From: a bacterium
GTDB taxonomy: Bacteria > UBA9089 > JASEGY01
NCBI GenBank assembly: GCA_040753085.1
Contig: JBFMHI010000002.1
Coordinates: 4,087 to 68,086, forward strand
Reading direction: 5' to 3'
Length of the DNA stretch: 64,000 bases
Shown here: positions 10,292-62,931 of the stretch, one piece after another
How the letters are laid out: each line of letters starts with the position of its first letter
Position numbering within the stretch: position 1 is the first letter of the stretch
The notes under the pieces: model-generated
Database searches by the model: none
Seen by the model: the letters and a program-made list of their open reading frames with translations, nothing else
What the model was told of the DNA's origin: nothing
Translations under genes and position numbers: made by a program

Positions 10292-10310
10292 GTTCTCACT
10301 ATTTTCTTCA

Positions 10311-10414
10311 GTAACTATTCAGGTGGATAGGCTGAAGGCTTTTAGAAATAAATACGGAGGGCATATTATTGGACTTCAGCCTTCAGTCTTCAGCCTATCT
10401 ACCTGAGTAGATAC
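10311..10414. repeat. hairpin element of the CTGAAGG heptamer family (imperfect termini GTAACTATTCAGG / CCTGAGTAGATAC)
   Basis: Inverted heptamer arrays gctgaagg / cttcagccttcagtcttcagcc; related copies at 46010-46137 and 54783-54851. Confidence 0.6.
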
Positions 10415-14797: not shown

Positions 14798-14861
14798 CTT
14801 ACTCTTAAGCAAGGTGATATGTGTTGGGGATAATAGGAAAGGGGATATTTATGTCTCTGAA

Positions 14862-15070
14862 ATACTCGATACTCGATACTCGATGCTCGATACTCGATGT
14901 TCGATACTGGATATTGGATCCTTTACTAGCCTCGAGCATCGAGGATCGAGCATCGAGCATCGAGGATCGAGGATCGAGCATCGAGGATCGAGCATCGAGC
15001 ATCGAGGATCGAGGATCGAGGATCGAGGATCGAGCATCGAGGATCGAGGATCGAGCATCGAGCATCCAGC
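14862..15070. repeat. CATCGAG-family heptamer hairpin (left array CTCGATR about 6 units, centre GGATCCTTTACTAGCC, right array about 20 units of CATCGAG/GATCGAG)
   Basis: Directly visible tandem heptamers; it lacks the outer GTAACCGTTCA termini seen at other copies. Confidence 0.7.
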
Positions 15071-15073
15071 CTA

Positions 15074-15301
15074 ATGGCAAAGAGAGAAGAAATGAAAGAA
15101 AAGATAGATAGGTTAAAGAAGTTTTTAAAGGAAGTCTGGTTGGAAGTAACCCCTTCTCATGGCAAGGTGGCCTGGCCTTCTCGAAAAATGATCGTGGGGT
15201 CAACTACTGTTGTCTTTATTGCCGTGGCGATCATCAGTGTTTATATCGGTCTGGTAGATGTCATTCTATCCAAGACCATAAATTTTATTATTAGCAGGTG
15301 A
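15074..15301 (+). CDS. secE: preprotein translocase subunit SecE
   Basis: 75 aa with a single C-terminal TM helix and the KVxWPSRKM motif; position before nusG. Confidence 0.8.
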   Translation: MAKREEMKEKIDRLKKFLKEVWLEVTPSHGKVAWPSRKMIVGSTTVVFIAVAIISVYIGLVDVILSKTINFIISR

Positions 15302-16007: not shown

Positions 16008-16181
16008 AGCCTCTATATAGTAGCCTTACCTAGCGAAACCACAACATATTGTGTTTAGGTGTTTAAAAGTTAGCTAAAATTCCTAAAAAACGGCTTTCTA
16101 TGCAACCTATAAAAGGAGACGAACCACAATATATTGTGTTCTGTAAGCTTCAAAATCAATATGTGGTGGCTGAGTAGTTAC
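16008..16181. mobile_element. MITE-like hairpin element with TIR GTAACTACTCAGCC / GGCTGAGTAGTTAC and a perfect 8-bp TSD ATTTATTG
   Basis: ATTTATTG at 16000-16007 and 16182-16189; internal palindromic units aaccacaacatattgtgtt and aaccacaatatattgtgtt. Confidence 0.7.
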
Positions 16182-16188
16182 ATTTATT

Positions 16189-16337
16189 GTAACCGTTCAT
16201 CACATGATGCTTGATCCTCGATGCTCGATGCTCGATCCTCGATGCTGGTAAAGGATCCAGTATCCAGGATCGAGCATCGAGCATCGAGCATCGAGCATCG
16301 AGGTTGTGTCTTTGTGGCTTAGTGGCTGAACGGTTAC
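16189..16337. mobile_element. CATCGAG-family MITE (TIR GTAACCGTTCA / TGAACGGTTAC, inverted heptamer arrays around centre GGTAAAGGATCCAGTATCCAGG)
   Basis: gtaaccgttcatcacatgatg...ctcgatg arrays...catcgag arrays...ggctgaacggttac; inserted directly beside the previous element. Confidence 0.7.
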
Positions 16338-16372
16338 TAATTATTAATGATAACTGATCTTAAGGAGTAATC

Positions 16373-17349: not shown

Positions 17350-17425
17350 CTATTAGGGCGATGTTCATCCTTTTGGCCATTTGTCGAATCGCTAATCTTG
17401 AATTGCGAATCGCCAATCTATCTTT

Positions 17426-17559
17426 GTAACCGTTCAGCACATGATGCTGGATGCTCGATGCTCGATCTTCGATGCTGGTAAAGGATTCAGTATCCAGGAT
17501 CGAGCATCCAGCATCGAGGATCGAGGATCGAGTTTGTGCCTTAGGGGCTGAACGCTTAC
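17426..17559. mobile_element. CATCGAG-family MITE (TIR GTAACCGTTCA / TGAACGCTTAC) nested between ATTCGCG heptamer arrays at 17385-17418 and 17572-17612
   Basis: gtaaccgttcagcacatgatgctggatgctcgatgctcgatcttcgatgctggtaaaggattcagtatccaggatcgagcatcc...ggctgaacgcttac, with flanks aattgcgaatcgccaatct and aattcgcaattcgcgatccgcgattcgcgatt. Confidence 0.7.
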
Positions 17560-17664
17560 CTAAGTCTTTTAATTCGCAATTCGCGATCCGCGATTCGCGA
17601 TTAATCCGTAAGCGGCCCCAACGATGAACAAGGCCACAATATTGTTAATGGTTAAGGAGGCAAG

Positions 17665-22998: not shown

Positions 22999-25900
22999 TT
23001 GAGTGCTGAAGCGGCGGTTGCTAAGAGTCAATCGAGGAGTCTTCCGGTGACCTTGAATTATCAGGCGGATCACGATGATAAGCTCTTTGATTTTGCTTCT
23101 ATTACCATTAAGCTTGCTTCGCCGGAACGAATTCGATCCTGGTCTCACGGTGAGGTAAAAAAACCGGAAACTATTAATTACCGAACATTTAAGCCGGAAC
23201 GAGATGGTCTCTTTTGTGAGCGGATATTCGGGCCGACTAAGGATTACGAATGCTACTGTGGGAAATATAAGAGTATTCGTTATCGGGGTGTTATCTGCGA
23301 TCGATGCGGGGTGGAAGTAACCCGGGCGGAAGTAAGAAGGGAACGCATGGGACACATTGAGCTGGTAGCCCCGGCCGCTCATATATGGTATTTTAAGCGG
23401 ATCCCTTCTCAAATGTCTCTTCTTTTGGATATCTCGGTTAGAGACCTGGAACGGGTGCTTTACTTCGAAGAATACATCGTGACCAGGGTAGCTGGATCAG
23501 TGCCGCTCCAACTCGGAACCGTTATGGGAGAAGAGGACTTCTGGATGTATAAGGAGAAATATGGGGATGGATTTTCGGCGGGAATGGGGGCGGAGGCGGT
23601 TAGAAAATGTCTGCAGTCCTTAAACCTGGAAAAGCTGGCGGTGGAACTGCGTCAAGAAATGAAAGAGGAGTCTTCCAGCCAGAAGAAAAAAAAGGCAGTC
23701 CGTCGTTTAGCGGTCATTGACGCCTTTCTGAAATCGAATAATAAACCAGAATGGATGATACTCGATTGTGTGCCGGTTATCCCTCCAGAACTCAGACCGA
23801 TGGTTCAATTGGATGGGGGCAGGTTTGCCACCTCTGATCTAAATGACCTTTATCGCCGGGTGATTAATCGTAATAATAGACTTCAGCGGTTGCTTGATTT
23901 AAAGGCGCCTGAGATTATTATTCGAAATGAAAAAAGAATGCTTCAGGAAGCCGTGGATACCCTCTTTGATAATTCCAGGCGGGGTAGAGGCGTCAAGGGA
24001 CACGGGAGCAGACTGCTTAAATCTCTTTCCGACATTTTAAAAGGAAAACGGGGCAGGTTCAGACAGAACCTGTTAGGTAAACGGGTTGACTACTCCGGCC
24101 GGTCAGTCATTGTGGTTGATCCTAAGCTAAGACTGTATCAATGCGGTCTGCCGAAGAAGATGGCCATCGAGTTATTTAAGCCCTTTATTATGAAGGAATT
24201 AGTGGATAGGGGACTGGTTCATAATATCAAGTCAGCCAAGCGAATGGTGGAGAGGGAGGATAAAGAGATATGGGATGCGCTGGAAAAGGTCATTGCGGGT
24301 CATCCGATTCTCTTGAACCGAGCGCCGACCCTTCACCGGGCTGGTATTCAGGCCTTTGAGCCTATTTTGGTGGAAGGAGAAGCCATTAAAATACATCCCC
24401 TGGTCTGTGCCGCCTTCAATGCCGATTTTGATGGGGATCAAATGGCCGTTCACGTCCCCCTTTCTTTAGAGGCTCAATTAGAATGCGAGATGTTAATGCT
24501 TTCCGTCTACAATATCCTCTCCCCGGCTAACGGACATCCCCTGATGGTTCCCAGTCAGGATATTGTTCTGGGTTGCTGTTATCTAACCAAGGAGGTCCTG
24601 CCGACTTCCGATAGATTAAGATCCTATTATAATTCGGAAGAAGTTATGGCGGCTTATGATGCCGGAGTAATCGGCCTCCATACCCTGGTTAATGTCAGGA
24701 TGAACGGATCCAAAGTAAAGACCACCGCCGGGAGACTCATTTTCAACCAGGTCATCCCACCGGAATTAGGTTTTATTAATCAAATGGTGGACAAGCACAC
24801 CCTGTCTGAAATCGTCTATACCTCTTATCGAAAAAACGGCCTGGCCAGGACCGTCAATTTGCTTGACGAAGTTAAACAGCTTGGATTCAAGTATGCCACC
24901 AAATACGGGGGGTCAATCAGTATAGATGATATTAAGGTTCCGGGTGTGAAAAAGCAGGTGTTGGAAAAAGGGCATAAAGAGGTAGAGCATATCCTAAATG
25001 AGTATCAACAAGGCTTGATTACCGATGAAGAGAGATACAATCGGATCGTGGATATATGGACCTCTCTGGGAGAAGAGGTGGCTGATGCTACCTTTGAGCA
25101 GTTGGCCCGTGATATGGAGGGCTTTAATCCGATTTACATTATGGTCGAATCAGGCGCCAGGGGAAGCAAACAACAAGTCAGACAGTTAGCCGGAATGCGC
25201 GGACTGATGGCCAAGCCATCGGGAGAGATTATCGAGTTGCCTATTACGGCCAACTTCCGGGAAGGGCTTTCGGTGTTGGAATATTTCATTTCCACCCATG
25301 GAGCCAGGAAAGGGTTGGCTGATACCGCCCTGAAAACAGCTGATGCAGGTTATTTGACCAGGAGATTGGTTGATATAGCCCAGGATGTGATTGTTACCGA
25401 AATAGATTGTGGAACGATGAATGGCATGGTGGCTGAGTCCATCAAAGAAGGAGATGAAGTTATCGAGTCACTCAAGGAGCGGATTTTGGGCCGGGTTACC
25501 CTGGATGAGATTGTAGACCCCAGGTCGGGTAAGGTCCTAGTTGAGCCAGGCGAGGAAATAGATGAAGAGGCCGCCGACGCCATAGAAGATGCGGACATAG
25601 AAAGGATCAGGATGAGAACTGTCCTTACCTGTGAAACGGCTCGGGGTGTATGTGCCAAATGTTATGGAAGAAATTTGGCTACAGGGAGATTGGTGGATAT
25701 AGGTGAAGCCGTGGGAATTATTGCGGCTCAGTCTATTGGTGAGCCTGGAACCCAGCTTACTATGCGGACCTTCCATATTGGGGGAACCGCCTTCCGTCAG
25801 GTAGAAGAAAGGGAAATCCGCTTGAACTATCCGGTTGAAATTGTCGCTTTACCCAGATACCTCATCTCCTTGAAGGAGGAGCAGGGGATGATTGTCTCGC

Positions 25901-27291
25901 GGGGGGGAAATATGCTGATCAGAAAGATTCTTAAAGAATATACCCTGGCCCCGGGAAGCAAGATTATGGTATTTGATGGATTATGGATTAATATGGGTGA
26001 AGTCGTGGCTGAAACAAGTGAAGGAGAAAGTATTAAGGCGGAAGTAGCCGGAATAGGTCGAATAACGGAAGAAGGCAAGGTCTTAATAGAGGCCAGGGAG
26101 AGGGAGATTCATCTTCGAACCGGCACGAAGATTTATGTCCAACCAAACACCTTTGTCGAGGCCGGACAGATCATCGCTGAATTTGATCCTTACAATGAGC
26201 TTATTCTGACTGAAACCACTGGTGAAGCCAGATTCAAAGATATTATCAAAGGTAGAACCCTACGGGAGGAGCTGGATGAAAATACCGGTCTTTTTAACCG
26301 GGTCGTGGTTGAAGACAGGGAAGAGGAATTACAGCCTTCGGTGGATATCATCAAAGAGGATGGAAAGGCCGTTAACTACATCTTGCCTCATGGAGCCAGG
26401 TTAGTGGTTCAGGACGGACAAAAATTGACGGCTGGAGATACATTAGCCAAGTTCCCTCAAGAATTGTCTAAGACTAAGGACATTACCGGTGGATTGCCCC
26501 GCGTGGCTGAGCTTTTTGAAACCAGGTGTCCCAAGGATAATGCGGTGATAGCTGAAATTGACGGTGTCATCGAGTTTAAACCAGCCGCGGGAGGCACAAG
26601 GACGGTGGTGATTAGAAATAAGGCCACTAATACCACCAGAGAATATTATATATCGGTAGGTAAACATTTGAAGGTTCATGAAGGGGATGAGGTTAAAGCC
26701 GGAGATCAGTTGATTGAAGGCCCTATAGATCCGCACGATATCCTTCGGATTAAAGGAGATTATGCCCTGCAGCAATATCTTTTAAACGAGGTCCAGGAAG
26801 TTTATAAACTTCAGGGGGTGGATATTAATGATAAACATATTGAAGTTATCGTTCGTCAGATGTTGAGACGGGTAGAGATAACTTCAGCCGGCGATACGGA
26901 TTTTCTCGTGGGGGAACATATGGATAAGTTCCGCTTTATGGAGGAGAATAAACGGGTGGTCGCTCAAGGAGGCACACCGGCTCAGGCCAGCCCGCTTCTT
27001 TTGGGGATAACGAAGGCCTCATTAGCTACTGATTCTTTTATTTCAGCGGCCTCATTCCAGGAGACTACCAGGGTTTTAACGGAAGCGGCCATTAAAGGCA
27101 GAACGGATGACTTGCTTGGTTTGAAAGAAAATGTAATTATTGGCAGACTTGTTCCGGCCGGGACAGGAATGCCGATGTATAAAGACAGGCAATTTACTTT
27201 TAACCGATTAGGGGAAGAGACTGTTTCGGAGGAGGAACATCCACTTACGGCTGGTTCATTACCGATAACCGAATCACCGATTACCGATTAG
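22999..27291 (+). CDS. rpoC: DNA-directed RNA polymerase subunit beta' (TTG start)
   Basis: 1430 aa; zinc-binding [19 protein letters not shown]...CDRCG and the catalytic NADFDGD motif. Confidence 0.97.
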
Positions 27292-27469
27292 GTGAGGAGT
27301 CTAGCTCGACGAAAGTTCTTGGGCGGTTTCAGGAGGGTTCAAGGGTTCAAGAGTAGATTTCTGTTACTCGATGTCCAAGTTTTTTTCTGTAGTTAACAGT
27401 AAATGGTTTTCTGCCGATAGTTAAAATAGCGCAAGGTTATGCTAACTTACTAGGGGAGAGGACCAAATT

Positions 27470-28456
27470 ATGTTCAAGATGGCTAATAATAGACAGATGA
27501 CATTATTAAAGGCAGAAGAGGAGCATATCAGGAGGGTTCTTCCCTTACTCCTAAAGAAAGATGACAGGTTTAGAACCGAGGTCTCTATTATCCTAAGCGA
27601 GGTCTTTGCCAAGAAGGATGAGCTAAGGATAGTTATAGAGGAGATTCAGAAAAGCAGAGAAGAGACAAGCCGAAGGTTTGAGGAGATGCGAGAAGAGACA
27701 AGCCGAAGGTTTGAGGAGATGCGAGAAGAGACAAACCGAAGGTTTGAGGAGATGCGAGAAGAGACAAACCGAAGGTTTGAGGAGATGCGAGAAGAGACAA
27801 ACCGAAGGTTTGAGGAGATGAACCAAAGGTTTGAAGAACATCGCGAAGAGACAAACCGAAGGTTTGAGGAGATGAACCGAAGGTTTGAAGAACATTGCGA
27901 AGAGACAAACCGAAGGTTTGAGGAGATGAACCGAAGGTTTGAAGAACATCGCGAAGAGACAAATAAGAGGTTTGAGGCAGTAGAAACCCAACTTCAGGAA
28001 CAAACAAAGCAGCTAAGGGAGCATTCAGTCCAACTTCAGGAACAATCAAGGGAAATAAGAAGGATGGGGATAAGCATCAGAACCGTAGGGGCAAGGTGGG
28101 GAATATTTGCTGAAGGGACAATCCGAAATACCTTAAAGGAGCTACTCCTCAAAAAGCTTAAAGTAAAAGAGGTATCCTCGTGGAAGGTAATGGATAAAGA
28201 GGGAAAGGTAGGTATTCCTAATTCAGAGGTAGAGGTAGACATCCTTATCCAGAATGAGAAGCATTTTCTAATAGAGATAAAATCCTCTGCCGATGAAGAA
28301 AATGTAGAGAGGTTTTATAAAATAGGAAATTTTTATTATGAGAAGACAAAGATTAAGCCAAATCTTATCTTTGTAGCGGTGGAGATGAACAAAAAGGGAG
28401 AAGACCTCTGCAAAAAACTAGATATCCAGCTTATAACCTACGAGGATTTGGACTGA
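27470..28456 (+). CDS. tandem-repeat coiled-coil protein with a C-terminal PD-(D/E)XK (restriction-endonuclease-like) domain, possibly DUF3782-like
   Basis: About nine 11-aa repeats REETNRRFEEM, then a C-terminal region with EVEVDILIQNEKHFLIEIKSS (D..E.K pattern) and LIFVAVEM; inserted between rpoC and rpsL. Confidence 0.65.
   Translation: MFKMANNRQMTLLKAEEEHIRRVLPLLLKKDDRFRTEVSIILSEVFAKKDELRIVIEEIQKSREETSRRFEEMREETSRRFEEMREETNRRFEEMREETNRRFEEMREETNRRFEEMNQRFEEHREETNRRFEEMNRRFEEHCEETNRRFEEMNRRFEEHREETNKRFEAVETQLQEQTKQLREHSVQLQEQSREIRRMGISIRTVGARWGIFAEGTIRNTLKELLLKKLKVKEVSSWKVMDKEGKVGIPNSEVEVDILIQNEKHFLIEIKSSADEENVERFYKIGNFYYEKTKIKPNLIFVAVEMNKKGEDLCKKLDIQLITYEDLD
27655..27985 (+). repeat. array of about nine 33-nt tandem repeats (gaagagacaagccgaaggtttgaggagatgcga) inside the CDS
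   Basis: Directly visible near-identical 33-mers; they produce the spurious antisense ORFs 27623-28003 and 27633-28049. Confidence 0.85.
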
Positions 28457-28475
28457 AGAAGGTAGGTAGTACTCT

Positions 28476-28583
28476 ATGACATTTGATAGGGTGGATAGAG
28501 TCTTTTGAGTTTGAGGCGGGCTTTTCGGGATGGTAAATTGCCAGTTTACTGACTTATACCTGACCCACCATATCAAATGTCAT
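28476..28583. other. 19-bp inverted repeat ATGACATTTGATAGGGTGG / CCACCATATCAAATGTCAT separated by about 70 bp
   Basis: Near-perfect IR (1 mismatch) directly downstream of the repeat-protein gene. Confidence 0.5.
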
Positions 28584-28712
28584 CGAGGAGTAGTTATATG
28601 GTCACAAAAGTAATGACAAGGGGGCGTGTTATCTAAGTTCTTATAACACTGTCGGTTAACGGGCAGGCTAATTAAAAAATCGCATCTTGATAAATGTTTT
28701 AGAAAAAAACTG

Positions 28713-28741
28713 TTGACAAAATAAAAATATGGTGGTAAACT
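28713..28741 (+). promoter_or_regulatory. candidate sigma70 promoter TTGACA-17-TAAACT
   Basis: ttgacaaaataaaaatatggtggtaaact. Confidence 0.45.
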
Positions 28742-28747
28742 GGTAAC

Positions 28748-28884
28748 TCCAACGCCAGAGGGAAGTGCCAGGGTTAAGAAGCTGTTTTTTAAGTATCCCT
28801 AAGGGGGTGATTACCTATTTAGTTCTTAACGAAAGAAGAAAAGGTAGACGCTTAAAAAGGCAGCTCTGCGGGCTGCTTTTTTTT
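28748..28884 (+). ncRNA. candidate small RNA (about 135 nt) between a promoter and an intrinsic terminator (GCAGCTCTGCGGGCTGC plus T8)
   Basis: The promoter at 28713-28741 and the terminator hairpin at 28860-28876 followed by tttttttt bracket a segment with no plausible ORF. Confidence 0.3.
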
Positions 28885-28904
28885 GATTATCAATTGCTAA
28901 TGGT

Positions 28905-29040
28905 TAATGGGCCATACCGCCAAGGTCACCCCGACCACTTATTTTTGGTGATGGGTAGTCTGGTAACGGTCAGACCATAGACCCCAAGCCCCAGACGACC
29001 AGACACCAGATAAAGTGGTGGGTGGGCGAGTTTGGCCGTA
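28905..29040. repeat. hairpin repeat, copy 1 (arms CATACCGCCAAGGTCACCCCGACCACTT / AAGTGGTGGGTGGGCGAGTTTGGCCGTATG); inverted copy at 47150-47245
   Basis: The two loci align over about 100 bp in opposite orientation; both sit immediately upstream of an operon-leading r-protein gene (rpsL, rpsM). Confidence 0.55.
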
Positions 29041-29080: not shown

Positions 29081-29464
29081 TTGCCGACGATTAATCAATT
29101 GATCAGGAAGGGTAGAGAAAAAGGAAAGAAGAAGACTAAAACTCCGGCTTTAGCGGGCTCGCCGCAAAGAAGGGGAGTTTGCACCAAGGTTTATACCACC
29201 ACACCCAAGAAGCCAAATTCTGCTTTAAGAAAAATAGCCAGGGTAAGATTATCCAGTGGCTTTGAAGTTACTACTTATATCCCCGGGATTGGGCATAATT
29301 TGCAGGAGCACTCCGTTATTCTTCTGAGGGGAGGAAGGGTGAAGGATATACCAGGGGTGAGATATCATATTATTAGGGGAGCCTACGATGCCAGCGGCGT
29401 AGCTGATCGATTCCAAGGCAGGTCAAAATACGGAGCCAAGACACCGAAAAAGAAAGCAGAGTAA
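29081..29464 (+). CDS. rpsL: 30S ribosomal protein S12 (TTG start)
   Basis: [14 protein letters not shown]...; RBS gaggagg. Confidence 0.95.
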
Positions 29465-30246: not shown

Positions 30247-30516
30247 ATGAATTTGCGTGAGATTCTCGCCGACATCCATGCTCTCGAAACGGAACTATTG
30301 GACTTTGAGCGGCGATATGGCGTCCGCTCGGAAACTTTCTACACAGCATACATCAATGGCGAAGAACCCGAAGATGACAACTGGGTATTGGATTTTGGAG
30401 AGTGGGCTAGTGTGTATCGAACCTGGCTGGCTCGCCAAGCCGAATATCGCAACGAAGTCCAGCGGGTCCAACTCCACGTGCCGAGTCTGGCGGGATTAGT
30501 CCGAGTAGCCGCATGA
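30247..30516 (+). CDS. hypothetical 89-aa protein, GC-rich with atypical codon usage; foreign insertion between rpsG and fusA
   Basis: Codon third positions are visibly richer in G/C than the flanking genes. No recognisable motif; an overlapping alternative-frame ORF at 30257-30499 makes the coding frame uncertain. Confidence 0.4.
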   Translation: MNLREILADIHALETELLDFERRYGVRSETFYTAYINGEEPEDDNWVLDFGEWASVYRTWLARQAEYRNEVQRVQLHVPSLAGLVRVAA

Positions 30517-30632: not shown

Positions 30633-32717
30633 ATGGCGGAAACAATTTTACTTAAGTATATTAGAAATATTGGTATTATGGCTCATATCGATGCTGGTAA
30701 GACCACCACTACAGAGCGGATGCTTTACTATACTGGTAAAGTTTATAAGTTGGGTGAAGTCGATGCTGGCACCGCTACTATGGATTGGATGGAACAGGAG
30801 CAGGAGCGTGGGATTACTATCACGGCGGCCGCCACCACCCTATCCTGGCGAGATCACCGGATCAACCTTATTGATACGCCCGGACACGTAGATTTTACTA
30901 TGGAAGTGGAGCGGTCTTTAAGGGTTCTCGATGGGGCCGTGGCTCTTTTCTGTTCGGTAGGGGGAGTAGAACCTCAATCAGAGACGGTCTGGCATCAGGC
31001 TGAGAAATACAAGATTCCAAGGATTGCCTTTGTTAATAAGATGGATAAGGTAGGCGCTAATTTCCATCAAGTTATCCGAATGATGGAAGAGAGGCTTTCG
31101 GCGCGGGCCGTTCCGATACAACTTCCGATAGGTAGCGAAGAAAATTTTGTGGGTGTCATTGATTTAGTGGGAATGAAGGCTATCCGCTGGCAAGCTGATG
31201 ACTTGGGGGCCAGTTTTACGGTGGAAGATATTCCGGAAGATTATTTAGAAGAAAGCTGGCATCATCATAATTTACTTATCGAGGCGCTGGCTGAATCCGA
31301 TAATGAATTAATGGAGAAATATATTGAGGAGGAAGATATAAGCGAGGCTGAAATTAAGGCAACTCTCAGAAGGCTGACCATTGGGGCTAAGATATCCCCT
31401 GTTTTATGTGGGAGTTCCTTTAAAAACAAAGGAGTTCAGCCGCTGCTTGATGCCATTGTTGATTATTTACCGGCGCCCTCCGACGTTCCCGCTGTGGTGG
31501 GGATTAATCCTGACACAGAGGTAAGAGAAGAGAGGCTCGGGACCAAAGAGGAACCCTTTTCTGCCCTTATCTTTAAGGTGGCGGCTGACCCCTATGTGGG
31601 GAATTTAAGTTACATTCGGGTGTATTCAGGTTCTTGTGCCACCGGGGACCAGGTTTATAATTCAGTGGTCAGGAAGAGAGAACGACTAGGCCGGCTTGTT
31701 CAGATGCATGCTAACAAGAGGGCGGATATTAAGGAGGTTTCGGCCGGGGATATTGTGGCCATAGTCGGACTAAAAAATACCGCTACCGGTCAGACCCTAT
31801 GTGATCGAAATCATCCTATCCTCCTGGAATCCATTCACTTTCCTGAACCGGTTATCTCGGTAGCTATAGAGCCTAAAACAAAATTGGATGAGGAAAAGCT
31901 GTCTCTTTGTCTTTCTTCTTTATCACAGGAGGATCCGACTTTCAAGGTGGTCACGGATCCGGAGACCGGCCAGATGATCATATCCGGGATGGGGGAGCTT
32001 CATCTTGAAGTCTTAACCGACCGGATGCAAAGGGAATTCAAGGTCGGGGTGAGGGTAAGTAAACCTCATGTCGTTTATCGGGAGACGATAAGGCGAAGCG
32101 TCAAATCCGAAGGTAGATATATCAAACAAACGGGTGGGCGCGGCCAGTATGGACACGTTTGGATTGAATTTATTCCTGGTGAACCAGGCTCCGAATTTAC
32201 TTTTACTAATCGAATTGTAGGCGGAGCTATTCCCAAAGAATATATTTCAGCGGTGGAAAAGGGGGTTAAAGAAGCGGCTGAACATGGAGTTCTGGCCGGC
32301 TATCCCTTAGTGGATTTTGAGGCTGTTCTTTATGATGGTTCCTACCATGAAGTTGATTCATCCGAACTGGCCTTTAAAAATGCCGGGGCTTTAGCCCTTA
32401 GAGAGGGGCTTAAACGGGCGGCCCCTGTTTTGCTGGAGCCGGTAATGAAGATAGAAGTTGTTGTTCCGAGGGATTTTACGGGAGATGTAATTGGTGATCT
32501 TAATGCCAGGCGGTCCAATATTTCCGGGATGGAACCTCGGGGCAGAGAGACCCAGGTAATTAAAGGAATCGTTCCTTTAGCCGAGATGTCCGGCTACGCT
32601 ACCTCCCTCAGGTCGTTAACCCAGGGCCGGGCAACCTATCATATGGAATTTTCTCACTATGAAGAGGTCCCGCGTCAAATCTCGGATGAGATTACCAAGG
32701 GATTGAAGGCGGCCTAA
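30633..32717 (+). CDS. fusA: translation elongation factor G
   Basis: [19 protein letters not shown] and DTPGHVDF G-domain motifs; 694 aa. Confidence 0.97.
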
Positions 32718-32723
32718 AACTAA

Positions 32724-32811
32724 GCTCGATGCTCGATGCTCGATGCTGGGTAAAGGATCCCGTATCCAGGATCGAGCATCCAGCATCGAGGATCGAGCAT
32801 CGAGGATCGAG
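32724..32811. repeat. CATCGAG-family heptamer hairpin (no outer TIR) directly after the fusA stop
   Basis: gctcgatgctcgatgctcgatgctgggtaaaggatcccgtatccaggatcgagcatccagcatcgaggatcgagcatcgaggatcgag. Confidence 0.7.
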
Positions 32812-32821
32812 AGGAGTTGTT

Positions 32822-33130
32822 GTGGTTTCCCAAAAGATTCGTATTAAGCTTAATGCCTATGACCATAGGATCCTGGATCAGTCGGCGGGTGAAATTGTTT
32901 CTACGGCTAATCGGACCGGCGCCAGGGTGGCCGGCCCTATCCCTCTGCCGACAAAGATAAGTCGATATACGGTCTTAAGATCCCCTCACGTGGATAAAAA
33001 GTCAAGGGAACAATTTGAAATGCGCATCCACAAAAGGGTCTTGGATATCCTGGAGCCGACTGAAGATACCATCGCGGCTTTAATGAAGTTAGAGCTTCCG
33101 GCAGGAGTCGAGGTAGAGATAAAGCTCTAA
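32822..33130 (+). CDS. rpsJ: 30S ribosomal protein S10 (GTG start assumed)
   Basis: ...[43 protein letters not shown]... matches S10. The track ORF start at 32729 reads through the heptamer repeat; RBS gaggag at 32811. Confidence 0.85.
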
Positions 33131-33215: not shown

Positions 33216-33473
33216 CGACCTGTACGGTTAGGTTGTAGACTACTGACGCTGAAAGCGTTGAATTTTAAATAGCCGTAGATGCAATCTCCGGAAACAAATC
33301 GCCACGCTCGACCCTGCAAGGGTCGAATATTATCCATCGCCTAGAATTCAACCCTTTCAGGGTTGAGATGTTCGTAGCTGTTTTACCTTCCGCAGGTTTC
33401 ACCTGTGGTTATGTAAAATTCAAACCTTTCAGGTTTGAAGGGAATTGCTTGTAATCTCTAACCGCACAGGTCG
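33216..33473. mobile_element. 258-bp MITE-like element (TIR CGACCTGTACGGTTA / TAACCGCACAGGTCG), internally a chain of short hairpins, perfect 8-bp TSD AAATAATT; second copy at 50696-50949
   Basis: AAATAATT at 33208-33215 and 33474-33481; internal hairpins gacgctGAAAgcgtc, cgaccctGCAAgggtcg, caaccctTTCAgggttg, caaaccTTTCAggtttg, ccgcaggtttcacctgtgg. The two copies are about 90% identical. Confidence 0.75.
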
Positions 33474-33570
33474 AAATAATTCCTGAGAAGGGCTGAAATC
33501 GGGGTGCCTCTTTTGGTTTGGCTGAATATTTAGATGGGGGAGTGCAGGATAAAAAACCATGAATAAACAA

Positions 33571-37574: not shown

Positions 37575-37592
37575 TTAGCCATTAACAATTAT

Positions 37593-37754
37593 GTAACCGT
37601 TCATCCCATAAGGCTGGATGCTGGATGCTCGATTCTCGATGTTCGATCCTCGATGCTGGATACTGGATCCTTTACCAGCATCGAGGATCGAACATCGAGA
37701 ATCGAGCATCGAGCATCGAGGATCGAGTTTGTGCCTTAGGGGCTGAACGCTTAC
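37593..37754. mobile_element. CATCGAG-family MITE with TIR GTAACCGTTCA / TGAACGCTTAC and a perfect 8-bp TSD ACAATTAT
   Basis: ACAATTAT at 37585-37592 and 37755-37762; inverted heptamer arrays around centre GGATACTGGATCCTTTACCAGC. Confidence 0.8.
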
Positions 37755-37787
37755 ACAATTATTAATTGTTAATGGTAAATTATAATT

Positions 37788-42258: not shown

Positions 42259-42376
42259 ATGAAACCACGAATAAACACTTAGTAGTGGTCATTAGTAAGG
42301 GCCTCAAGGCCCAGTGACTAATGAGGGAGAGCTCTCTATTCGGGCCTATTCGGGTGTCTTCGTGGCTAAATTTACG

Positions 42377-42463
42377 GTAACTATTCAGCCACAAAGACAC
42401 TAAGACACGAAGATTATAAGAATTATTCTTTGTGCCTTTGTGCCTTGGTGGCTGAATAGTGAC
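42377..42463. mobile_element. GTGTCTT-family MITE (TIR GTAACTATTCAGCCAC / GTGGCTGAATAGTGAC) with a perfect 8-bp TSD AATTTACG, inserted into a CTATTCGGG/GTGTCTTCGTGGC repeat context
   Basis: AATTTACG at 42369-42376 and 42464-42471; internal arrays aaagacactaagacacgaag / ctttgtgcctttgtgcc. Confidence 0.75.
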
Positions 42464-44452: not shown

Positions 44453-44463
44453 TTAATAATTGG

Positions 44464-44597
44464 TAACCGTTCATCCCATGAGGCTAGAGGCTCGATCCTC
44501 GATGCTCGATGCTGGTAAAGGATCCAGTATCCAGGATCGAGCATCGAAGATCGAGCATCGAGTGGGTGTTTTTGTGCCTTACGGGCTGAACGCTTAT
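44464..44597. mobile_element. CATCGAG-family MITE (TIR GTAACCGTTCA / TGAACGCTTAT) with a perfect 8-bp TSD AATAATTG
   Basis: AATAATTG at 44456-44463 and 44598-44605. Confidence 0.8.
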
Positions 44598-44621
44598 AAT
44601 AATTGTTAATTATTAAGAAGG

Positions 44622-46009: not shown

Positions 46010-46137
46010 ACGTAACTATTCAGGCAGATAGGCTGAAGGCTTTTAGAAATAAATGCGGAGAGCAGATGATTGCACGTCAGCCTTCAGCCTTCAGTCTTCA
46101 GCCTTCAGCCTTCAGTCTTCAGCCTATCTACCTGAAT
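46010..46137. repeat. CTGAAGG-family hairpin element (GTAACTATTCAGGCAGATAGGCTGAAGG ... (CCTTCAG)n ... CCTATCTACCTGAAT)
   Basis: Close relative of the 10311-10414 element; 8 tandem ccttcag/tcttcag units. Confidence 0.65.
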
Positions 46138-46158
46138 AAATTGTTAATGGGGTGCTAA

Positions 46159-48718: not shown

Positions 48719-48730
48719 TTAACAATTATC

Positions 48731-48866
48731 GTAACCGTTCATCACATGATGCTCGATGCTCGATCCTGGATGCTCGATGCTCGATGACGGGATCCTTTTT
48801 TATCATCGAGGATCGAGCTTCGAGGATCGAGTTGGTGTCCTTGTGCCTGAGGGGCTGAACGTTTAC
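48731..48866. mobile_element. CATCGAG-family MITE (TIR GTAACCGTTCA / TGAACGTTTAC), TSD CAATTATC / CAATTATT (7 of 8)
   Basis: gtaaccgttcatcacatgatgctcgatgctcgatcctggatgctcgatgctcgatgacgggatccttttttatcatcgaggatcgagcttcgaggatcgag...ggctgaacgtttac. Confidence 0.75.
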
Positions 48867-49033
48867 CAATTATTAATTCAGCTGGGCGAAAGTTTCGGGG
48901 TGGTTTCAGGAGGGTTGGAGGATTCATCACTTGAATCCTCCAACCCTTGACCCCTATCTGACTTCAAACCAGGCAGGAATTTACGCCGGGCTGTATTAAT
49001 GGTTAATTACCAGTATTGGAGGGAAATAGTGGT

Positions 49034-50695: not shown

Positions 50696-50949
50696 GGTTA
50701 AGGTTGTAGACTACTACTGACGCTGAAAGCGTCAAATTTTAAATAGCCGTAGGTGCAAGCTACGGAAGATAAATACATCCGCAACGCTCGACCCTGCAAG
50801 GGTCGAATTATCCATCACATAGAATTCAACCCTTTCAGGGTTGAGCTGTGGTAGATGCTTCGTTTCCGCAGGTTTTACCTGTGGTTATGTAAAATTCAAA
50901 CCTTTCAGGTTTGAGGAGAATTGCTTGTAATTCCTAACCGTACGGGTCG
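50696..50949. mobile_element. second copy of the approximately 258-bp structured MITE (TIR CGACCTGTACGGTTA / TAACCGTACGGGTCG)
   Basis: About 90% identical to 33216-33473, including all internal hairpins. Confidence 0.75.
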
Positions 50950-50957
50950 AAATTTTT

Positions 50958-51245
50958 CGACCTGTGAAATAGGTTTATACAAATATCCCCCAATTAGGGT
51001 AAGAAAGAGAATAAACAGATCGCTCCTCTGGAGCTAATTTGTTATGAGAGATATATTCTACAAACATGTCGCTCCTCTGGAGCTAACCTGAATAAAGCTC
51101 CGTAGGAGAGCAATCTGTTTGTAGTATTTCGCAAAAGCAATATATTTGCAGCTCCGTAGGAGCGACCTGTTTTTAGTAGTAGAGCTTGAATATCTATGTC
51201 TATGGGAAGTTTCTTGCATTTTATTTAAATCTATTTCACAGGTCG
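50958..51245. mobile_element. 288-bp MITE (20-bp TIR CGACCTGTGAAATAGGTTTA / TAAATCTATTTCACAGGTCG) with a perfect 8-bp TSD AAATTTTT; the internal GCTCC-nnn-GGAGC hairpin units (GTCGCTCCTACGGAGC and its variant GCTCCAGAGGAGC) are arranged as a long palindrome; inverted copy at 62578-62866
   Basis: AAATTTTT at 50950-50957 and 51246-51253; the element is inserted immediately after the terminus of the previous element. Confidence 0.8.
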
Positions 51246-56219: not shown

Positions 56220-56378
56220 GTTTACCCCCTTTATCTATTACCCAATATATCATAGATATAATCTTATTTCAAGACATTTTTATCTTGAGCCATCTGTGAA
56301 GAATGAAAATCTTGACTTCGCCCCTGATTTATGTTATGATAAGCGTTGAAAATGGAGAGCAGTGTCAAAAGATATACG

Positions 56379-56467
56379 GTAACCGTTCATCCCTCGATGC
56401 TGGATCCCCGATGCTCGATGCTCGAGCATCGGGGATCGAGTTTGTGCCTTAGTGGCTGAACGCTTAC
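56379..56467. mobile_element. short CATCGAG-family MITE (TIR GTAACCGTTCA / TGAACGCTTAC)
   Basis: gtaaccgttcatccctcgatgctggatccccgatgctcgatgctcgagcatcggggatcgagtttgtgccttagtggctgaacgcttac. Confidence 0.7.
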
Positions 56468-56531
56468 GAAATATGAAAGTGGATATGTTAGGCTCTTGTT
56501 TCTCTGGAAGGACAAGTGAAGATTAGGCCCT

Positions 56532-58829
56532 ATGAAAGATTTCAATCTCTTACAGGTAAGCAGTATAATTTTACTCCTTTTGCTCTTCCTCCCTGGTTGC
56601 TGGACCAGGGATGAAGTAATGACCATCCGTCTTTGGGAATTCCCCCGCTGGCGTGAGGGGGATGAGCTGGACCGCTTTGTCTGGATCAAGCGTCAGATAG
56701 CCGAGTTTGAAGCGAGCCATCCTGGGGTCAAGATCGAGTTGACTGAGTTGACCTGGGATAGGGGCCAGGATAAGATCCGGATCGCCACCGCGGCCGGGTT
56801 GGGGCCGGACATTGTCTCCGGCAGTCTGCCGGTGGAATATATTGAAGCCGGAGTGATAGAACCAATAGATGATTATCTGGCTCTCGAGGATAAGAAAGAT
56901 TACTACCCGGCCGGCTTCAGCGCCTATACCTATAAAGGCAAACACTGGGGCTGGCCATGGTTTCTGACCGGTCAGATGCTTTTTTTGAATCTGGATATAT
57001 TTAAAGAACGGGGAGTGGAACCCCCACAGGGTCCCTGGACTTACGAAGAGTTTGCCGCTAAAATGAAGGCCATGACCTTTGATTCTGACGGAGATAAAAG
57101 GGTAGACACTTATGGCTTCGGCTTTACAGTCACTCCCGGCGCCACCGATATCTGGCCATTTCTTTATATGGATGGCGGCCGCGCCTTGAGTGATGATCTC
57201 ACGCAATATACCTTTGATGAACCACCTGGCGTCTCCGGCCTGAGCCAACTGCGGGACCTGGTCCATACCTACCGGGTGTCTTTACCGGAGAGTGGTGGTC
57301 TGAAAACAACCGACCTCTGGCAGGCCTTTGCCAAGCAGAGACGGATTGCCTGCGCTCCCTGGGGTATTTGGGCCATCCCTGCCCTAAGGTTTGATGAGGC
57401 CCAAAAAGCGAAGGGATTAACGGAGGAGGATTTCTTTGACTTCACGGTGGTCGGTTATCCTATGGGCAAGAGCGGCCAACCTTTAACTTTCATTGGGGTA
57501 AGTGGGTTCATTGTCTTTAAACAGCCTGACCCTGCCAGGCGAGATATGTGCATAGAACTGGCTAAATCTCTTACCAGCGGTCAGAACCAGAAGGCTCTGG
57601 CTGCTTATGGGGTCTTTCCTACCCGCGTCTCAGCCGGGAATATTTATCCGGACGATCCCTATATGACTAAGGCGGCTAAAATCCTTCAGGATGGCCTAAC
57701 TGTTCCGGCTCATCCTGATTGGGGTAAGATGGATGAGGTCATTCAGCGGCAGATCCAATTGGCTGTTTTGGGTGAAAAAAGTGCGGCTGCCGCCCTGACT
57801 GATGCCGGAGTAGAGGTTGAAGCTATCCTGTCTCAAAGGCTAAAGACCACTGCCGACTTGAAGGGCATTGGAGTCGGGGAAAAGGCGGGAAACTACCTCT
57901 ATCTTTTTCTATTTCTGGCTGGAGCCTTGATACTCTGGTTAGGACTGAAGATGAGGGGCATAAAGGAATCCACCCGCTTTGCCTACCTAGCTATTTCCCC
58001 GGCGATGCTTATCTTTGCCGTTTTCCTGGCCTTTCCGGTCGGTCGGGCCTTTTTATTGGCCTTTCAGGAATACGAAATCGGCGGCCCTATCCTGGGGAAT
58101 TGGGTCGGCGCCGACAACTTTCGGGCCTTAGCTAAAAATGAGGTCTTCTGGAAATCCCTGAAGAATACCCTGGTCTACACGGCCTTTACGGTCCCGATAA
58201 ATGTCCTGATTGCCCTTATTCTGGCTAGCCTCATTCATCCCTTATCCGACCGCATGCGGACCTTTTTCCGGGCGGCCTATTATCTCCCCCATGTCACCTC
58301 AGTAGTGGTCATCTCCATGGTCTGGCGCTGGCTTTTTGATTACAACTACGGTCTCTTAAACCAGGTCCTTACCGGCCTGGGCCTTGAAGGCCTTCACTGG
58401 CTGACTGATGTTCACCTGGCCATGGGCAGCATCATTGGCTCCAGCCTGCTTTACACCCCTGGCGGCCCGATTATTATCTATCTGGCGGCTCTGGCGGCCA
58501 TGCCTTCTTCCCTTCACGAAGCAGCCCTGATGGACGGGGCCGGGCCAATCCGCCGCTGGTGGCACATCACCCTCCCCCTGCTTCGACCCACTACCCTGTT
58601 TTTGTTAGTCACTACTTCCATCGCCTCCTTTCAGGTCTTTGCCCAGGTGCTCATTCTAACTGATGGCGGCCCTGGCTATGCCACTTCTGTCTTAGTTCAC
58701 CGCATCTACACCACCGCCTTTAGAGACTTTGACTTCGGCCTCGCCTCAGCTATGGCCTTGATTCTTTTTGTAGTCATTATGACTATCTCTGCCATCCAAT
58801 TTAAGATTTTCAGGAAAAAATGGGAGTAA
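56532..58829 (+). CDS. fused ABC transporter: carbohydrate substrate-binding lipoprotein (aa 1 to about 450) plus permease domain (aa about 460-765)
   Basis: Lipoprotein signal LLLLLFLPGCW; SBP family 1-like domain; then 6 TM helices with EAA loop EAALMDGAGPIRRWWHITLP in the same reading frame. Confidence 0.7.
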   Translation: MKDFNLLQVSSIILLLLLFLPGCWTRDEVMTIRLWEFPRWREGDELDRFVWIKRQIAEFEASHPGVKIELTELTWDRGQDKIRIATAAGLGPDIVSGSLPVEYIEAGVIEPIDDYLALEDKKDYYPAGFSAYTYKGKHWGWPWFLTGQMLFLNLDIFKERGVEPPQGPWTYEEFAAKMKAMTFDSDGDKRVDTYGFGFTVTPGATDIWPFLYMDGGRALSDDLTQYTFDEPPGVSGLSQLRDLVHTYRVSLPESGGLKTTDLWQAFAKQRRIACAPWGIWAIPALRFDEAQKAKGLTEEDFFDFTVVGYPMGKSGQPLTFIGVSGFIVFKQPDPARRDMCIELAKSLTSGQNQKALAAYGVFPTRVSAGNIYPDDPYMTKAAKILQDGLTVPAHPDWGKMDEVIQRQIQLAVLGEKSAAAALTDAGVEVEAILSQRLKTTADLKGIGVGEKAGNYLYLFLFLAGALILWLGLKMRGIKESTRFAYLAISPAMLIFAVFLAFPVGRAFLLAFQEYEIGGPILGNWVGADNFRALAKNEVFWKSLKNTLVYTAFTVPINVLIALILASLIHPLSDRMRTFFRAAYYLPHVTSVVVISMVWRWLFDYNYGLLNQVLTGLGLEGLHWLTDVHLAMGSIIGSSLLYTPGGPIIIYLAALAAMPSSLHEAALMDGAGPIRRWWHITLPLLRPTTLFLLVTTSIASFQVFAQVLILTDGGPGYATSVLVHRIYTTAFRDFDFGLASAMALILFVVIMTISAIQFKIFRKKWE

Positions 58830-59025
58830 CTATTCAGCCACGGATTAACCCGGATTAGCACGGATAAAATAGAATGAGTTTAAAATAGGGAAAAATAACA
58901 GAGGACATTATCGGGAGGAGCATTTGAAGTTTACAATTTGGAAGAGAAAGAGTTGAATTTAAACGATTCATATTATTAAAAAAAATCAGTGTTTCATCCG
59001 TGTAAATCTGTGGCTGAATAGTTAC
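58826..59025. repeat. hairpin element with TIR GTAACTATTCAGCCAC / GTGGCTGAATAGTTAC and CGGATTA-type heptamers, large central loop
   Basis: gtaactattcagccacggattaacccggattagcacggat ... tcatccgtgtaaatctgtggctgaatagttac; partial relatives at 53215-53260, 62367-62405 and 62880-62930. Confidence 0.6.
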
Positions 59026-59112
59026 TCGTGAACAAAGATTAGAGGGAAATCGAGGATCGAGCATCGAACATCGAGCATCGAGGATTATCGGGTGGCGGCG
59101 GGAGGCAGCGCT

Positions 59113-60595: not shown

Positions 60596-61537
60596 TCAGG
60601 TAGCTGAGAGGTGTCCACCCCAGCGGAGCTTTGTTTTCAAGACCTGGTAAAAACTCCTGGCCTCGGGCTTGACTAAATAAATACACTCTTTGGCCTTTCC
60701 GGCGGTGATTCTGTCGCCTGACTTTAATGGATAGCCTGACTGGCCATCCTGGGTGAGCATCATCTCTCCTCGCGGTCCGGAGGAGACAACCAGGGATATC
60801 TCCTCATCAGGGCCAATGATGACAGGTCGCAGGGCCAGGGTATGAGGGCAAATAGGCGTGGCCATCAAGACCTCTAATCCGGGATTCAAGATTGGCCCAC
60901 CAGCCGAGAGGGAGTAAGCCGTAGAGCCGGTGGGGGTGGCCAGGATCATCCCGTCGGCTTCAAAGTTGGCTACTAATTCATCAGCAATAAAGAGGGTAAT
61001 GTTGATAGACCTGGCTAATGCCCCGCAGGTGATGACCACATCGTTTAAGGCCTTAAAGGCGGCGGCTTCAGTTCCTTCTCTCTCCACCTTCGCCTCCAGC
61101 ATCATCCTGGGCTCCAGTTCAAAGCGGTGGGCTAAGATGGACTCGATGGCAGGAAAAAGTTCCTCCTGGGTTACTTCGGTTAGAAAACCCAGGCTGCCTA
61201 AATTCACCGCCAGAATAGGCACGCCTTCAGGCCAGGCCAGTTGGGCCGTGTGAAGAAGGGTGCCATCTCCGCCCAGGGCGATAAGTAGGTCGGCCTCAGC
61301 TCCCAAATTAGCTGAAACAGAAATGGCTTTCTTGGCCAGGTCTAAAGACGCCCCTGGTTCGATAAGGGCCTTAATGTCCTTCTTATCCAGCCAGTCAATC
61401 AATTTAGAGGCCACTACTGCCGCCCCTGGCCGGTAAGGATTGACTACCAAACCTATCTTCTTTATGGCGGATGGCGCACCCACTTTGTGGGTAGCCGGGA
61501 TTGCGGATTGCGGATTGCGGATTGCGGATTGTTTCAT
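60596..61537 (-). CDS. nadK: NAD+ kinase (true start probably downstream of the repeat-encoded N-terminus)
   Basis: GGDGTLL motif and NAD-kinase fold. The track N-terminus MKQSAIRNPQSAIP is translated from a CAATCCG heptamer array. Confidence 0.85.
   Translation of the reverse strand: MKQSAIRNPQSAIPATHKVGAPSAIKKIGLVVNPYRPGAAVVASKLIDWLDKKDIKALIEPGASLDLAKKAISVSANLGAEADLLIALGGDGTLLHTAQLAWPEGVPILAVNLGSLGFLTEVTQEELFPAIESILAHRFELEPRMMLEAKVEREGTEAAAFKALNDVVITCGALARSINITLFIADELVANFEADGMILATPTGSTAYSLSAGGPILNPGLEVLMATPICPHTLALRPVIIGPDEEISLVVSSGPRGEMMLTQDGQSGYPLKSGDRITAGKAKECIYLVKPEARSFYQVLKTKLRWGGHLSAT
61493..61532. repeat. CGGATTG heptamer array (x5) at the 5' end of nadK
   Basis: gggattgcggattgcggattgcggattgcggattg. 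Confidence 0.7.
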
Positions 61538-61555
61538 CAGAAAAACTCCCTAATA

Positions 61556-61640
61556 TGGATGCTGGATGCTCGATACTCGATACTCGATACTCGATGCTCG
61601 AGCCTCGAGTATCGAGTATCGAGTATAGAGCATCGAGGAT
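61556..61640. repeat. CATCGAG-family heptamer hairpin (no outer TIR)
   Basis: gatgctggatgctcgatactcgatactcgatactcgatgctcgagcctcgagtatcgagtatcgagtatagagcatcgagg. Confidence 0.7.
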
Positions 61641-61644
61641 GGCG

Positions 61645-62352: not shown

Positions 62353-62405
62353 AAGTTTAATAGATAGTAACTATTCAGCCACACAGATTTAAACACTGAT
62401 TTTTT

Positions 62406-62866: not shown

Positions 62867-62931
62867 AACACTTACAACTCATTCTATTTTATCCGTGCTA
62901 ATCCGTGTTAATCAGTGGCTGAATAGTTACG

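Follow-up and report, generated by a model that had tools for sequence, protein, structure and literature searches.

The COG5493/DUF1626 proteins were placed in the PD-(D/E)XK nuclease superfamily by Knizewski et al. (2007; PMC1913061), who also noted their N-terminal coiled coil. Later, Steczkiewicz et al. (2012; PMC3424549) listed the family as being of unknown function, with a patchy distribution that suggests multiple horizontal transfers. The coiled-coil segments of "a family of prokaryotic endonucleases" correspond to Pfam DUF3782, and nonad beta-layers are found in the crenarchaeal, but not in the bacterial, DUF3782 members (Hartmann et al., 2016; PMC4786415). In archaea, operons joining HEPN, MNT and a DUF1626 restriction endonuclease have been described (Anantharaman et al., 2013; PMC3710099). 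No report of an experimental function for the COG5493/DUF1626 family was found in the literature searched. The gene described here lies between rpoC and rpsL in a bacterial stretch of 64,000 nucleotides (GTDB lineage UBA9089; assembly GCA_040753085.1, contig JBFMHI010000002.1, forward-strand positions 4,087 to 68,086), which was analysed as a whole and is hereafter called the window. Its product is a new member of this known but experimentally uncharacterised nuclease family. The best overall explanation, to which a probability of about one half is given, is a stand-alone COG5493 coiled-coil nuclease, added in this lineage and likely to play a role in genome conflict.

The closest characterised analogue is ShdA, from the Shield system, which has (i) a transmembrane helix; (ii) a long coiled coil; and (iii) an RmuC-type PD-(D/E)XK nuclease (PMC10270631; PMC11090510). 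ShdA by itself provides phage defence and degrades DNA in vitro (PMC10270631); RmuC, for its part, limits inversions at short inverted repeats (PMC1189080). The window protein resembles ShdA and RmuC in that, within a single gene, a long helical stalk bears a nuclease of the PD-(D/E)XK superfamily. But it lacks the transmembrane helix, and its nuclease is much smaller and sits at the extreme C-terminus. The protein is soluble, and no membrane-spanning segment was found in it (maximum 19-residue Kyte-Doolittle hydropathy of 0.97). Some family members show faint PF02646 matches; homology of the window protein to RmuC was nevertheless rejected, as PF02646 is absent at E<=1 and hhalign against an RmuC protein gave a probability of 0.1. 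A search of PADLOC gave no match to ShdA/Shield, in a database version (2.0.0, 2023) that may predate Shield. In consequence, the window protein is an analogue of ShdA, not a member of its system.

Family membership and domain architecture

Two Pfam domains were recognised above their gathering cutoffs: (i) DUF3782 (PF12644), at residues 174-247 (54.1 bits, E 1.7e-14; cutoff 24.4 bits), whose model runs from the last part of the stalk through the G-x-R-W-G motif and the first core helix to strand beta-1; and (ii) PDDEXK_10 (PF07788, formerly DUF1626), at residues 252-316 (40.1 bits, E 3.4e-10; cutoff 21.2 bits), which reaches 41.7 bits when the C-terminal fragment is searched alone. The remaining Pfam and NCBIfam matches are sub-threshold coiled-coil noise. 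An initial annotation, made from the sequence alone, had placed a 328-residue gene in the rpoC-rpsL junction and guessed a DUF3782-type protein; the open reading frame (ORF) lies exactly there and the guess was right, with PDDEXK_10 being matched as well. Among 5.8 billion clustered proteins, 520 homologues were found, the best of them about 50% identical and nearly all with both domains, in unclassified bacterial metagenome-assembled genomes (MAGs), WOR-3, Edwardsbacteria, Asgard archaea and Marsarchaeota. When the nuclease domain was used as the sole query, 384 matches were obtained among 1.84 billion cluster representatives (E<=1e-3), in which the domain is nearly always C-terminal and the proteins are 200-350 residues long.

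The full-length AlphaFold2 (AF2) model has a predicted local distance difference test score (pLDDT) of 85.8, and consists of helices at residues 2-30 and 32-45 followed by a single helix at residues 49-229, with pLDDT >90 across the repeats; the first helix of the nuclease domain is thus continuous with the stalk in the model. A PD-(D/E)XK nuclease fold was modelled with confidence for the C-terminal domain, and the predicted catalytic set in it is intact. The initial annotation had suspected such a domain, and modelling did not turn it into a non-nuclease fold. The modelled motif positions are occupied by E215, in the first helix; D257, in strand 252-261; and E269-I-K271, in strand 265-274, while the segment EVEVDILIQNEKHFLIEIKSS is located at residues 253-273.

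In an alignment of 63 members, G207, R209, E215, D242 and D257 are invariant, and G211, R219, G245, E269, K271 and the N-terminal L-P-x-L-L motif (L24) are conserved in at least 90%. Besides, the D...hExK pattern is kept in 110 of the 120 top matches. Taken together, the conservation of the four candidate catalytic residues and of this pattern argues for selection on catalysis. It also bears on the idea of a structural or scaffolding coiled-coil protein, in which the nuclease-like domain would be catalytically dead and would bind only nucleic acid or a partner. Such a protein would fit the helical head and stalk that make up around 60% of the chain, the older annotations of members as tropomyosin-like or coiled-coil proteins and the change of the motif III lysine to threonine in some DUF1626 members (PMC1913061). 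Nevertheless, since E215, D257, E269 and K271 are invariant or nearly so, this reading is very unlikely.

Among structures, the best matches of the nuclease domain are those of the repair nuclease NucS/EndoMS (PDB 2vld, 5gkj), but the likeness holds at the fold level only, with a sequence identity of 15-17%, and the window protein has neither the NucS N-terminal domain nor a DUF91 match in Pfam or NCBIfam. It differs from the Can2/Card1 CRISPR ancillary nucleases and the uncharacterised AF1548 (PDB 7bdv, 8bao, 6wxw, 1y88) in that it contains no CARF or other ligand-sensing domain, its N-terminal module being instead the helical head and the stalk. A profile search of PDB sequences gave nothing at E<=1, and apparent sequence matches were rejected as TPR-like low-complexity. 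The match to NucS/EndoMS is the first argument for the main rival explanation, according to which the protein is a housekeeping DNA repair or recombination nuclease, NucS/EndoMS- or RmuC-like, that acts on mismatches, branched DNA or hairpins and is expressed with the RNA polymerase operon. The missing NucS N-terminal domain and the lack of profile similarity to RmuC count against it; the remaining evidence on this rival is considered below, together with the role of the protein.

Regarding the stalk, the initial annotation had counted about nine perfect 11-residue repeats. The repeats are real, but their number and form are different: (i) five strictly tandem 11-residue units, REET(S/N)RRFEEM, at residues 63-117; and (ii) three 18-residue units, at residues 118-171, each formed by a heptad N(Q/R)RFEEH and an 11-mer. 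In total, the REETxRRFE unit occurs eight times and the RFE motif eleven times, the phenylalanines being spaced at 11, 11, 11, 11, 7, 11, 7, 11, 7 and 11. At the DNA level, Tandem Repeats Finder reports a period of 33 (5.0 copies, 99%; 27657-27820) and a period of 54 (3.9 copies, 91%; 27767-27977). The F/M/T positions of the stalk fit hendecad a/d/h core positions. As for the alpha/beta coiled-coil nonads ([aliphatic]-A-T-K-[polar]-[D/E]), none was found in the sequence, which has no 9-residue periodicity, no A-T-K and F spacings of only 7 and 11; the window protein fits the bacterial type of DUF3782 protein, without nonads.

RFEE repeats are found family-wide. Across the family, 89 to 275 residues (median 131) separate the head from the nuclease, while the C-terminal domain is constant at around 123 residues; the length of the family stalk varies through changes in repeat number. 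In this copy, with a spacing of 183 residues, the stalk has been lengthened recently by slippage or recombination of the 33-bp and 54-bp units. The 33-bp units 3-5 are identical in DNA, and units 1-2 differ by AGC versus AAC plus one AGA/CGA codon. The identity of units 3-5 points either to a very recent expansion or to an uncertain copy number in a short-read assembly. In general terms, the protein shares with the rest of the COG5493 family (PMC1913061; PMC3424549; PMC4786415) the same two Pfam domains and the bacterial stalk type, and differs from it by an unusually long, recently expanded hendecad/18-residue stalk and by its location within the rpoBC-str cluster, the closest relative being about 50% identical. 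Both the expanded stalk and the position are mildly unusual.

The same genome has at least one paralogue, P0078 (AB1797_04195), on another contig, with a head about 65% identical and RFEE repeats common to both proteins. Its nuclease domain is divergent, with a D...E-V-K pattern, and is not recognised by Pfam. Together with P0037, P0042, P0044, P0066 and P0067, this paralogue forms a sister subfamily that has the same head and RFEE stalk and the nuclease signature G-x-x-G-R-A-G-R-N-L-E ... E-I-D ... F-E-V-K-S-Y. No Pfam nuclease-domain match was obtained for P0078, P0037, P0042 or P0044, and other divergent matches, such as P0110 and P0079, have PDDEXK_10 only at or just below the cutoff. A search with the head alone (residues 1-64) gave no candidates, too few words being shared. 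Since divergent members are missed in this way, the family is broader than the current Pfam models; and the paralogue indicates that the head and stalk have been combined with at least two nuclease subtypes.

Insertion between rpoC and rpsL

Sampling of this lineage is very sparse: the best match to the RpoC C-terminus has 69% identity among 15 billion proteins and 63% in the GTDB species representatives, and a metagenome scan for close relatives yielded only three distant matches. Two nearest relatives have usable contigs, L092 and L093, with RpoC C-termini 69% and 61% identical to that of the window. In both, rpoC-rpsL-rpsG-fusA are closely packed, the gaps being at most 95/181, 7/94 and 14/108 bp, compared to the 1790 bp of the rpoC-rpsL gap in the window. 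Among 80 more distant rpoC loci, none has the nuclease gene, 38 have rpsL within 1.1 kb 3' of rpoC and 26 show no rpsL across the full 6 kb downstream. The compact arrangement in L092 and L093, along with the 80 distant loci devoid of the gene, leads by parsimony to the conclusion that the nuclease gene is a lineage-specific insertion, added in this lineage. The proposal of an insertion in the initial annotation is therefore supported relative to the nearest sampled relatives. The "highly conserved" junction on which it relied holds for those relatives and for the 38 distant loci, but it is not universal, as the 26 loci without rpsL indicate.

The insertion, specific to this lineage and placed between two essential, highly conserved genes, could also be the work of a selfish, free-standing homing-type endonuclease, which would have cut the rpoC-rpsL spacer, copied itself into it and persisted because its deletion puts the essential neighbours at risk. 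PD-(D/E)XK homing endonucleases exist; the gene is solitary, with no partners; and its guanine-cytosine content is below that of its neighbours (41.8% versus 47.2% in rpoC). But no target-site duplication and no terminal repeats flank the gene, none of the 80 other rpoC loci carries a copy, no examined homologue lies at this site and no relatives were found in phages, plasmids or viral contigs. Besides, we know of no counterpart among homing enzymes for a 150-residue stalk with a conserved head. Homing is, hence, quite unlikely.

As to the surroundings of the gene, the initial annotation had taken two hairpins as signs of an insertion: a 19-bp inverted repeat downstream and a hairpin repeat copy further on. 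The inverted repeat exists, but its arms (28467-28494 and 28565-28592) are 28 nt long and 86% complementary, instead of 19 bp; the hairpin has a folding energy of -46 kcal/mol (z = -3.6). As a part of a mobile unit it was rejected, because it is present in a single copy in the window and is not conserved 3' of homologues. Another long hairpin lies closer to rpsL (28915-29040); it includes a period-7 repeat (Tandem Repeats Finder; 28991-29010) and is in the style of the genome-wide heptamer hairpins, without their canonical termini.

Such heptamer elements are intergenic palindromes built from tandem heptamers (ATCGAGC/ATCGAGG, CTTCAGC, ATCCGAA, GATTGCG, CTTTGTG) and bracketed by GGTAAC(C/T)(G/A)TTCA ... 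TGAA(C/T)(G/A)GTTAC; many of them lie between ribosomal-protein genes. The window has 24 GGTAACNRTTCAK termini, versus 0.7 expected, with none in the rpoC-rpsL gap. The elements recall the cyanobacterial STRR heptamer repeats. L093, which has no nuclease gene at the site, carries a CACAGAG heptamer hairpin in its rpoC-rpsL spacer and a further inverted repeat between rpsG and fusA (1505-1587 and 2612-2684), and a CGCAAAG heptamer hairpin is found downstream of the closest nuclease homologue (P0001; L001 5961-6055). The heptamer hairpin element thus seems to be characteristic of this poorly sampled bacterial group. Since the hairpins are genome-wide, occur in L093 without the gene and are not conserved after the homologues, those of the gap are better seen as a lineage trait than as an insertion scar. 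Flanking hairpins, in contrast to what had been suggested, are no evidence of insertion: they fill the spacers of the window, L093 has them without the gene and no target-site duplication flanks the gene in the window.

Between the two gap hairpins, there is a good sigma-70-like promoter followed by a terminator-like hairpin (Table 1). This 28713-28890 unit is possibly a leader of the str operon (attenuator-type) or a small transcript, not a part of the nuclease gene. Its fold is not unusual (z = -1.4), and no known RNA was found in the rpoC-rpsL gap with Rfam, either at gathering cutoffs or at E<=1. The nuclease gene itself is preceded only by a weak promoter-like site (9/12) and by no terminator-like site between rpoC and its start; rpoC, the nuclease gene and rpsL are all co-directional. 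Because it has a good ribosome-binding site, only that weak upstream promoter-like site and no preceding terminator, the gene would probably be transcribed by read-through from rpoBC.

Other features of the window deserve a mention. Between rpsG and fusA, the same conserved operon holds a second accessory insertion, an 89-residue ORF (MEW5766087.1; AB1797_00470) that neither of the nearest relatives has; its product shows a weak likeness to the antitoxin TumA (NCBIfam NF045776; E 6e-7, 29.6 bits, far under the cutoff of 100), and no toxin gene is evident beside it. In an S10 ORF of 133 residues, the S10 domain begins at residue 38. Because the first ~30 codons translate a heptamer hairpin element (32718-32818), rpsJ probably starts 3' of the hairpin. 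The window also contains three further sets of long repeats, all of them unrelated to the nuclease gene (Table 1).

Table 1. Features of the window, with positions numbered from its first nucleotide.
Feature	Position	Strand	Details
rpoC	22999..27291	+	upstream neighbour; ORF list
Shine-Dalgarno-like GGGGAGAGG	27453..27461	+	8 nt 5' of the nuclease ATG; read directly from the sequence
Nuclease coding sequence	27470..28456	+	complete, 328 residues, ATG start; DUF3782 + PDDEXK_10 (COG5493-type) coiled-coil nuclease; ORF list, Pfam
N-terminal head, residues 1-48	27470..27613	+	two short helices, L-P-x-L-L motif; AF2, alignment
Helical stalk, residues 49-198	27614..28063	+	55% charged, 20% hydrophobic; ~22 nm if fully helical; AF2
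In-frame tandem repeats	27656..27982	+	5 x 33 bp (27656-27820), then 3 x 54 bp (27821-27982)
Hinge, residues 199-205, and G-x-R-W-G motif	28064..28102	+	hinge pLDDT <50; G207/R209 invariant, G211 at least 90%
Predicted PD-(D/E)XK domain, residues 206-328	28085..28453	+	catalytic candidates E215 (28112-28114), D257 (28238-28240), E269 (28274-28276), K271 (28280-28282)
Long imperfect hairpin	28467..28592	+	begins 11 nt past the stop codon; 28-nt arms, 70-nt spacer, no U-tract
Sigma-70-like promoter	28713..28741	+	TTGACA-17-TAAACT, extended TG
Intrinsic-terminator-like hairpin + T-run	28854..28890	+	~110 nt past the promoter, ~200 nt 5' of rpsL
126-nt hairpin	28915..29040	+	-57.8 kcal/mol, z = -5.2; CCAGAC-type heptamer-like arms; ends 41 nt 5' of rpsL
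rpsL	29081..29464	+	downstream neighbour; ORF list; identical to MEW5766085.1
89-residue ORF	30247-30516	+	between rpsG and fusA
S10 ORF	32729-33130	+	133 residues
Heptamer elements	14842-15100, 16180-16340, 17417-17590, 32710-32818, 37584-37785, 44454-44620, 48722-48867, 56370-56475, 61490-61680		
Heptamer element variants	10310-10412, 46011-46141, 42376-42463, 62366-62579, 58825-59026		
163-nt inverted repeat	50946-51108 vs 62716-62878		98% identity, 11.6 kb apart
Two adjacent direct repeats	33329-33482 vs 50807-50958		43 nt (93%) + 95 nt (91%), ~17.5 kb apart; small hairpins TTCAACCCTTTCAGGGTTGA and TTCAAACCTTTCAGGTTTGAA
55-nt inverted repeat	58826-58880 vs 62876-62930		96%

Possible role of the nuclease

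In the favoured explanation, the protein would be a metal-dependent endonuclease, most likely acting on DNA. Its stalks may associate in parallel, as a dimer or trimer, so that two or more nuclease domains would stand side by side at one end, an arrangement that would allow both strands to be cut. The head, some 22 nm away at the far end, could be a sensor or a module that binds a partner or signal. The proposed role is one in genome conflict, analogous to that of ShdA, which may take the form of (i) single-gene defence against foreign DNA; or (ii) a selfish or addictive element. A role in genome conflict would be the most likely one, on weak evidence, and core housekeeping less likely; a defence role in the strict sense is plausible but unproven. 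The grounds for genome conflict are the patchy distribution of the family, apparently due to horizontal transfer, the existence of a paralogue, the insertion specific to this lineage and the toxin-antitoxin genes or transposases that occasionally neighbour homologues.

These neighbours were seen in some of eight sampled homologue contexts, a sample small enough for an enrichment in defence genes to be missed. The homologues are located: (i) next to YfhO/PMT glycosyltransferases; (ii) next to secreted beta-propeller proteins; (iii) between an RND efflux pump and an RmuC gene; (iv) beside OmpA/PD40 proteins, followed 1.5-4 kb downstream by PIN and MNT/HEPN pairs; (v) between a solute-binding protein and a glycosyltransferase, near secDF; (vi) clustered with a transposase, an MNT/HEPN pair and another, shorter member of the family; and (vii) in two nearly identical loci, between a glycogen-related enzyme and a heavy-metal ATPase operon. 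In this small sample, the homologues are thus scattered, without a conserved context.

Several observations weigh against the genome-conflict explanation. None of the eight contexts shows a recurrent partner gene or a defence-island signature; most lie among housekeeping genes, several of them clearly so. In PADLOC there were only coiled-coil matches to the tails of ZorA/JetC and a weak generic REase_II (E 0.002-0.007), none of them specific. These two results do not support the resemblance to defence systems put forward in the initial annotation. No relatives were found in IMG/VR contigs, INPHARED phages or PLSDB plasmids; PHROGs likewise gave no specific match, and a viral structure library returned generic restriction-endonuclease folds only. 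As regards the mechanism, instead of a coiled coil the stalk could form one stable alpha-helix on its own, because it combines its high share of charged residues with many opposite-charge pairs at i/i+3 and i/i+4; this would remove the proposed means of dimerisation. Both the choice of DNA, rather than RNA, as the substrate and the oligomeric state are inferences. The number of repeats, moreover, could be an assembly artefact of a short-read MAG. Finally, the exact 328-residue protein, also in versions starting at M4 or M10, has no match in a collection of 15 billion proteins, whereas the products of rpsL, rpsG, the 89-residue ORF and fusA of the same contig are present in it under consecutive accessions (MEW5766085-088). 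The gene may therefore be unannotated in the public record, or appear there as a pseudogene or with another start.

The last two observations could also mean that the ORF is not a functional gene, or that the repeat region was mis-assembled, as the ~330 bp of near-identical tandem repeats exceed the typical length of short reads. But the ORF is intact and in frame through all the repeats, every family-conserved residue is kept, the ribosome-binding site is good and the model is of high confidence; mis-assembly, furthermore, may alter the number of repeats but not create the gene. An artefact of assembly or annotation is, in consequence, highly improbable. This artefact, homing and a purely structural function are all less likely than either genome conflict or housekeeping repair.

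Housekeeping repair, the main rival, gains from the homologue contexts, many of which are single genes amid ordinary metabolic genes, one of them adjoining RmuC. It also gains from the co-directionality with an essential operon without a terminator in between, and from a genome rich in long palindromic hairpins that could need processing. On the other hand, the gene is missing at this site in the nearest relatives; the family is patchily distributed (384 representatives among 1.84 billion), which is consistent with horizontal transfer; and the nuclease domain of the paralogue is divergent. Richness in hairpins does not track the gene either: L093 has hairpins without the gene, and nuclease loci in other phyla are devoid of hairpins. 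For this lack of co-occurrence, a function of the nuclease in processing the heptamer hairpins of the genome was rejected. Taken together, a housekeeping repair nuclease is possible but doubtful.

The genome-conflict explanation can be extended into a broader proposal, in which the COG5493 nucleases would be an unrecognised single-gene immunity or anti-mobile-DNA module of uncultured bacteria and archaea, with (i) the head as sensor; (ii) a stalk of a length rapidly retuned by in-frame slippage of heptad/hendecad repeats; and (iii) interchangeable PD-(D/E)XK effectors. In this genome, the module would have settled in the RNA polymerase/ribosomal cluster, where it would be constitutively co-expressed and hard to lose. 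In this full form, the proposal is speculative and unlikely to hold.

Since 2007 the family has figured in the literature as one of predicted nucleases, and this gene mainly adds a correct annotation, showing that an out-of-place gene belongs to a described family. With its intact predicted active site, defined hinge and recently expanded stalk, the protein could be a useful construct for biochemical work. Should its relatives turn out to be stand-alone defence or selfish nucleases, the variable stalk of the family would be a case of repeat-driven tuning, and the placement in the rpoBC-str cluster would show how accessory genes can lodge between essential ones.

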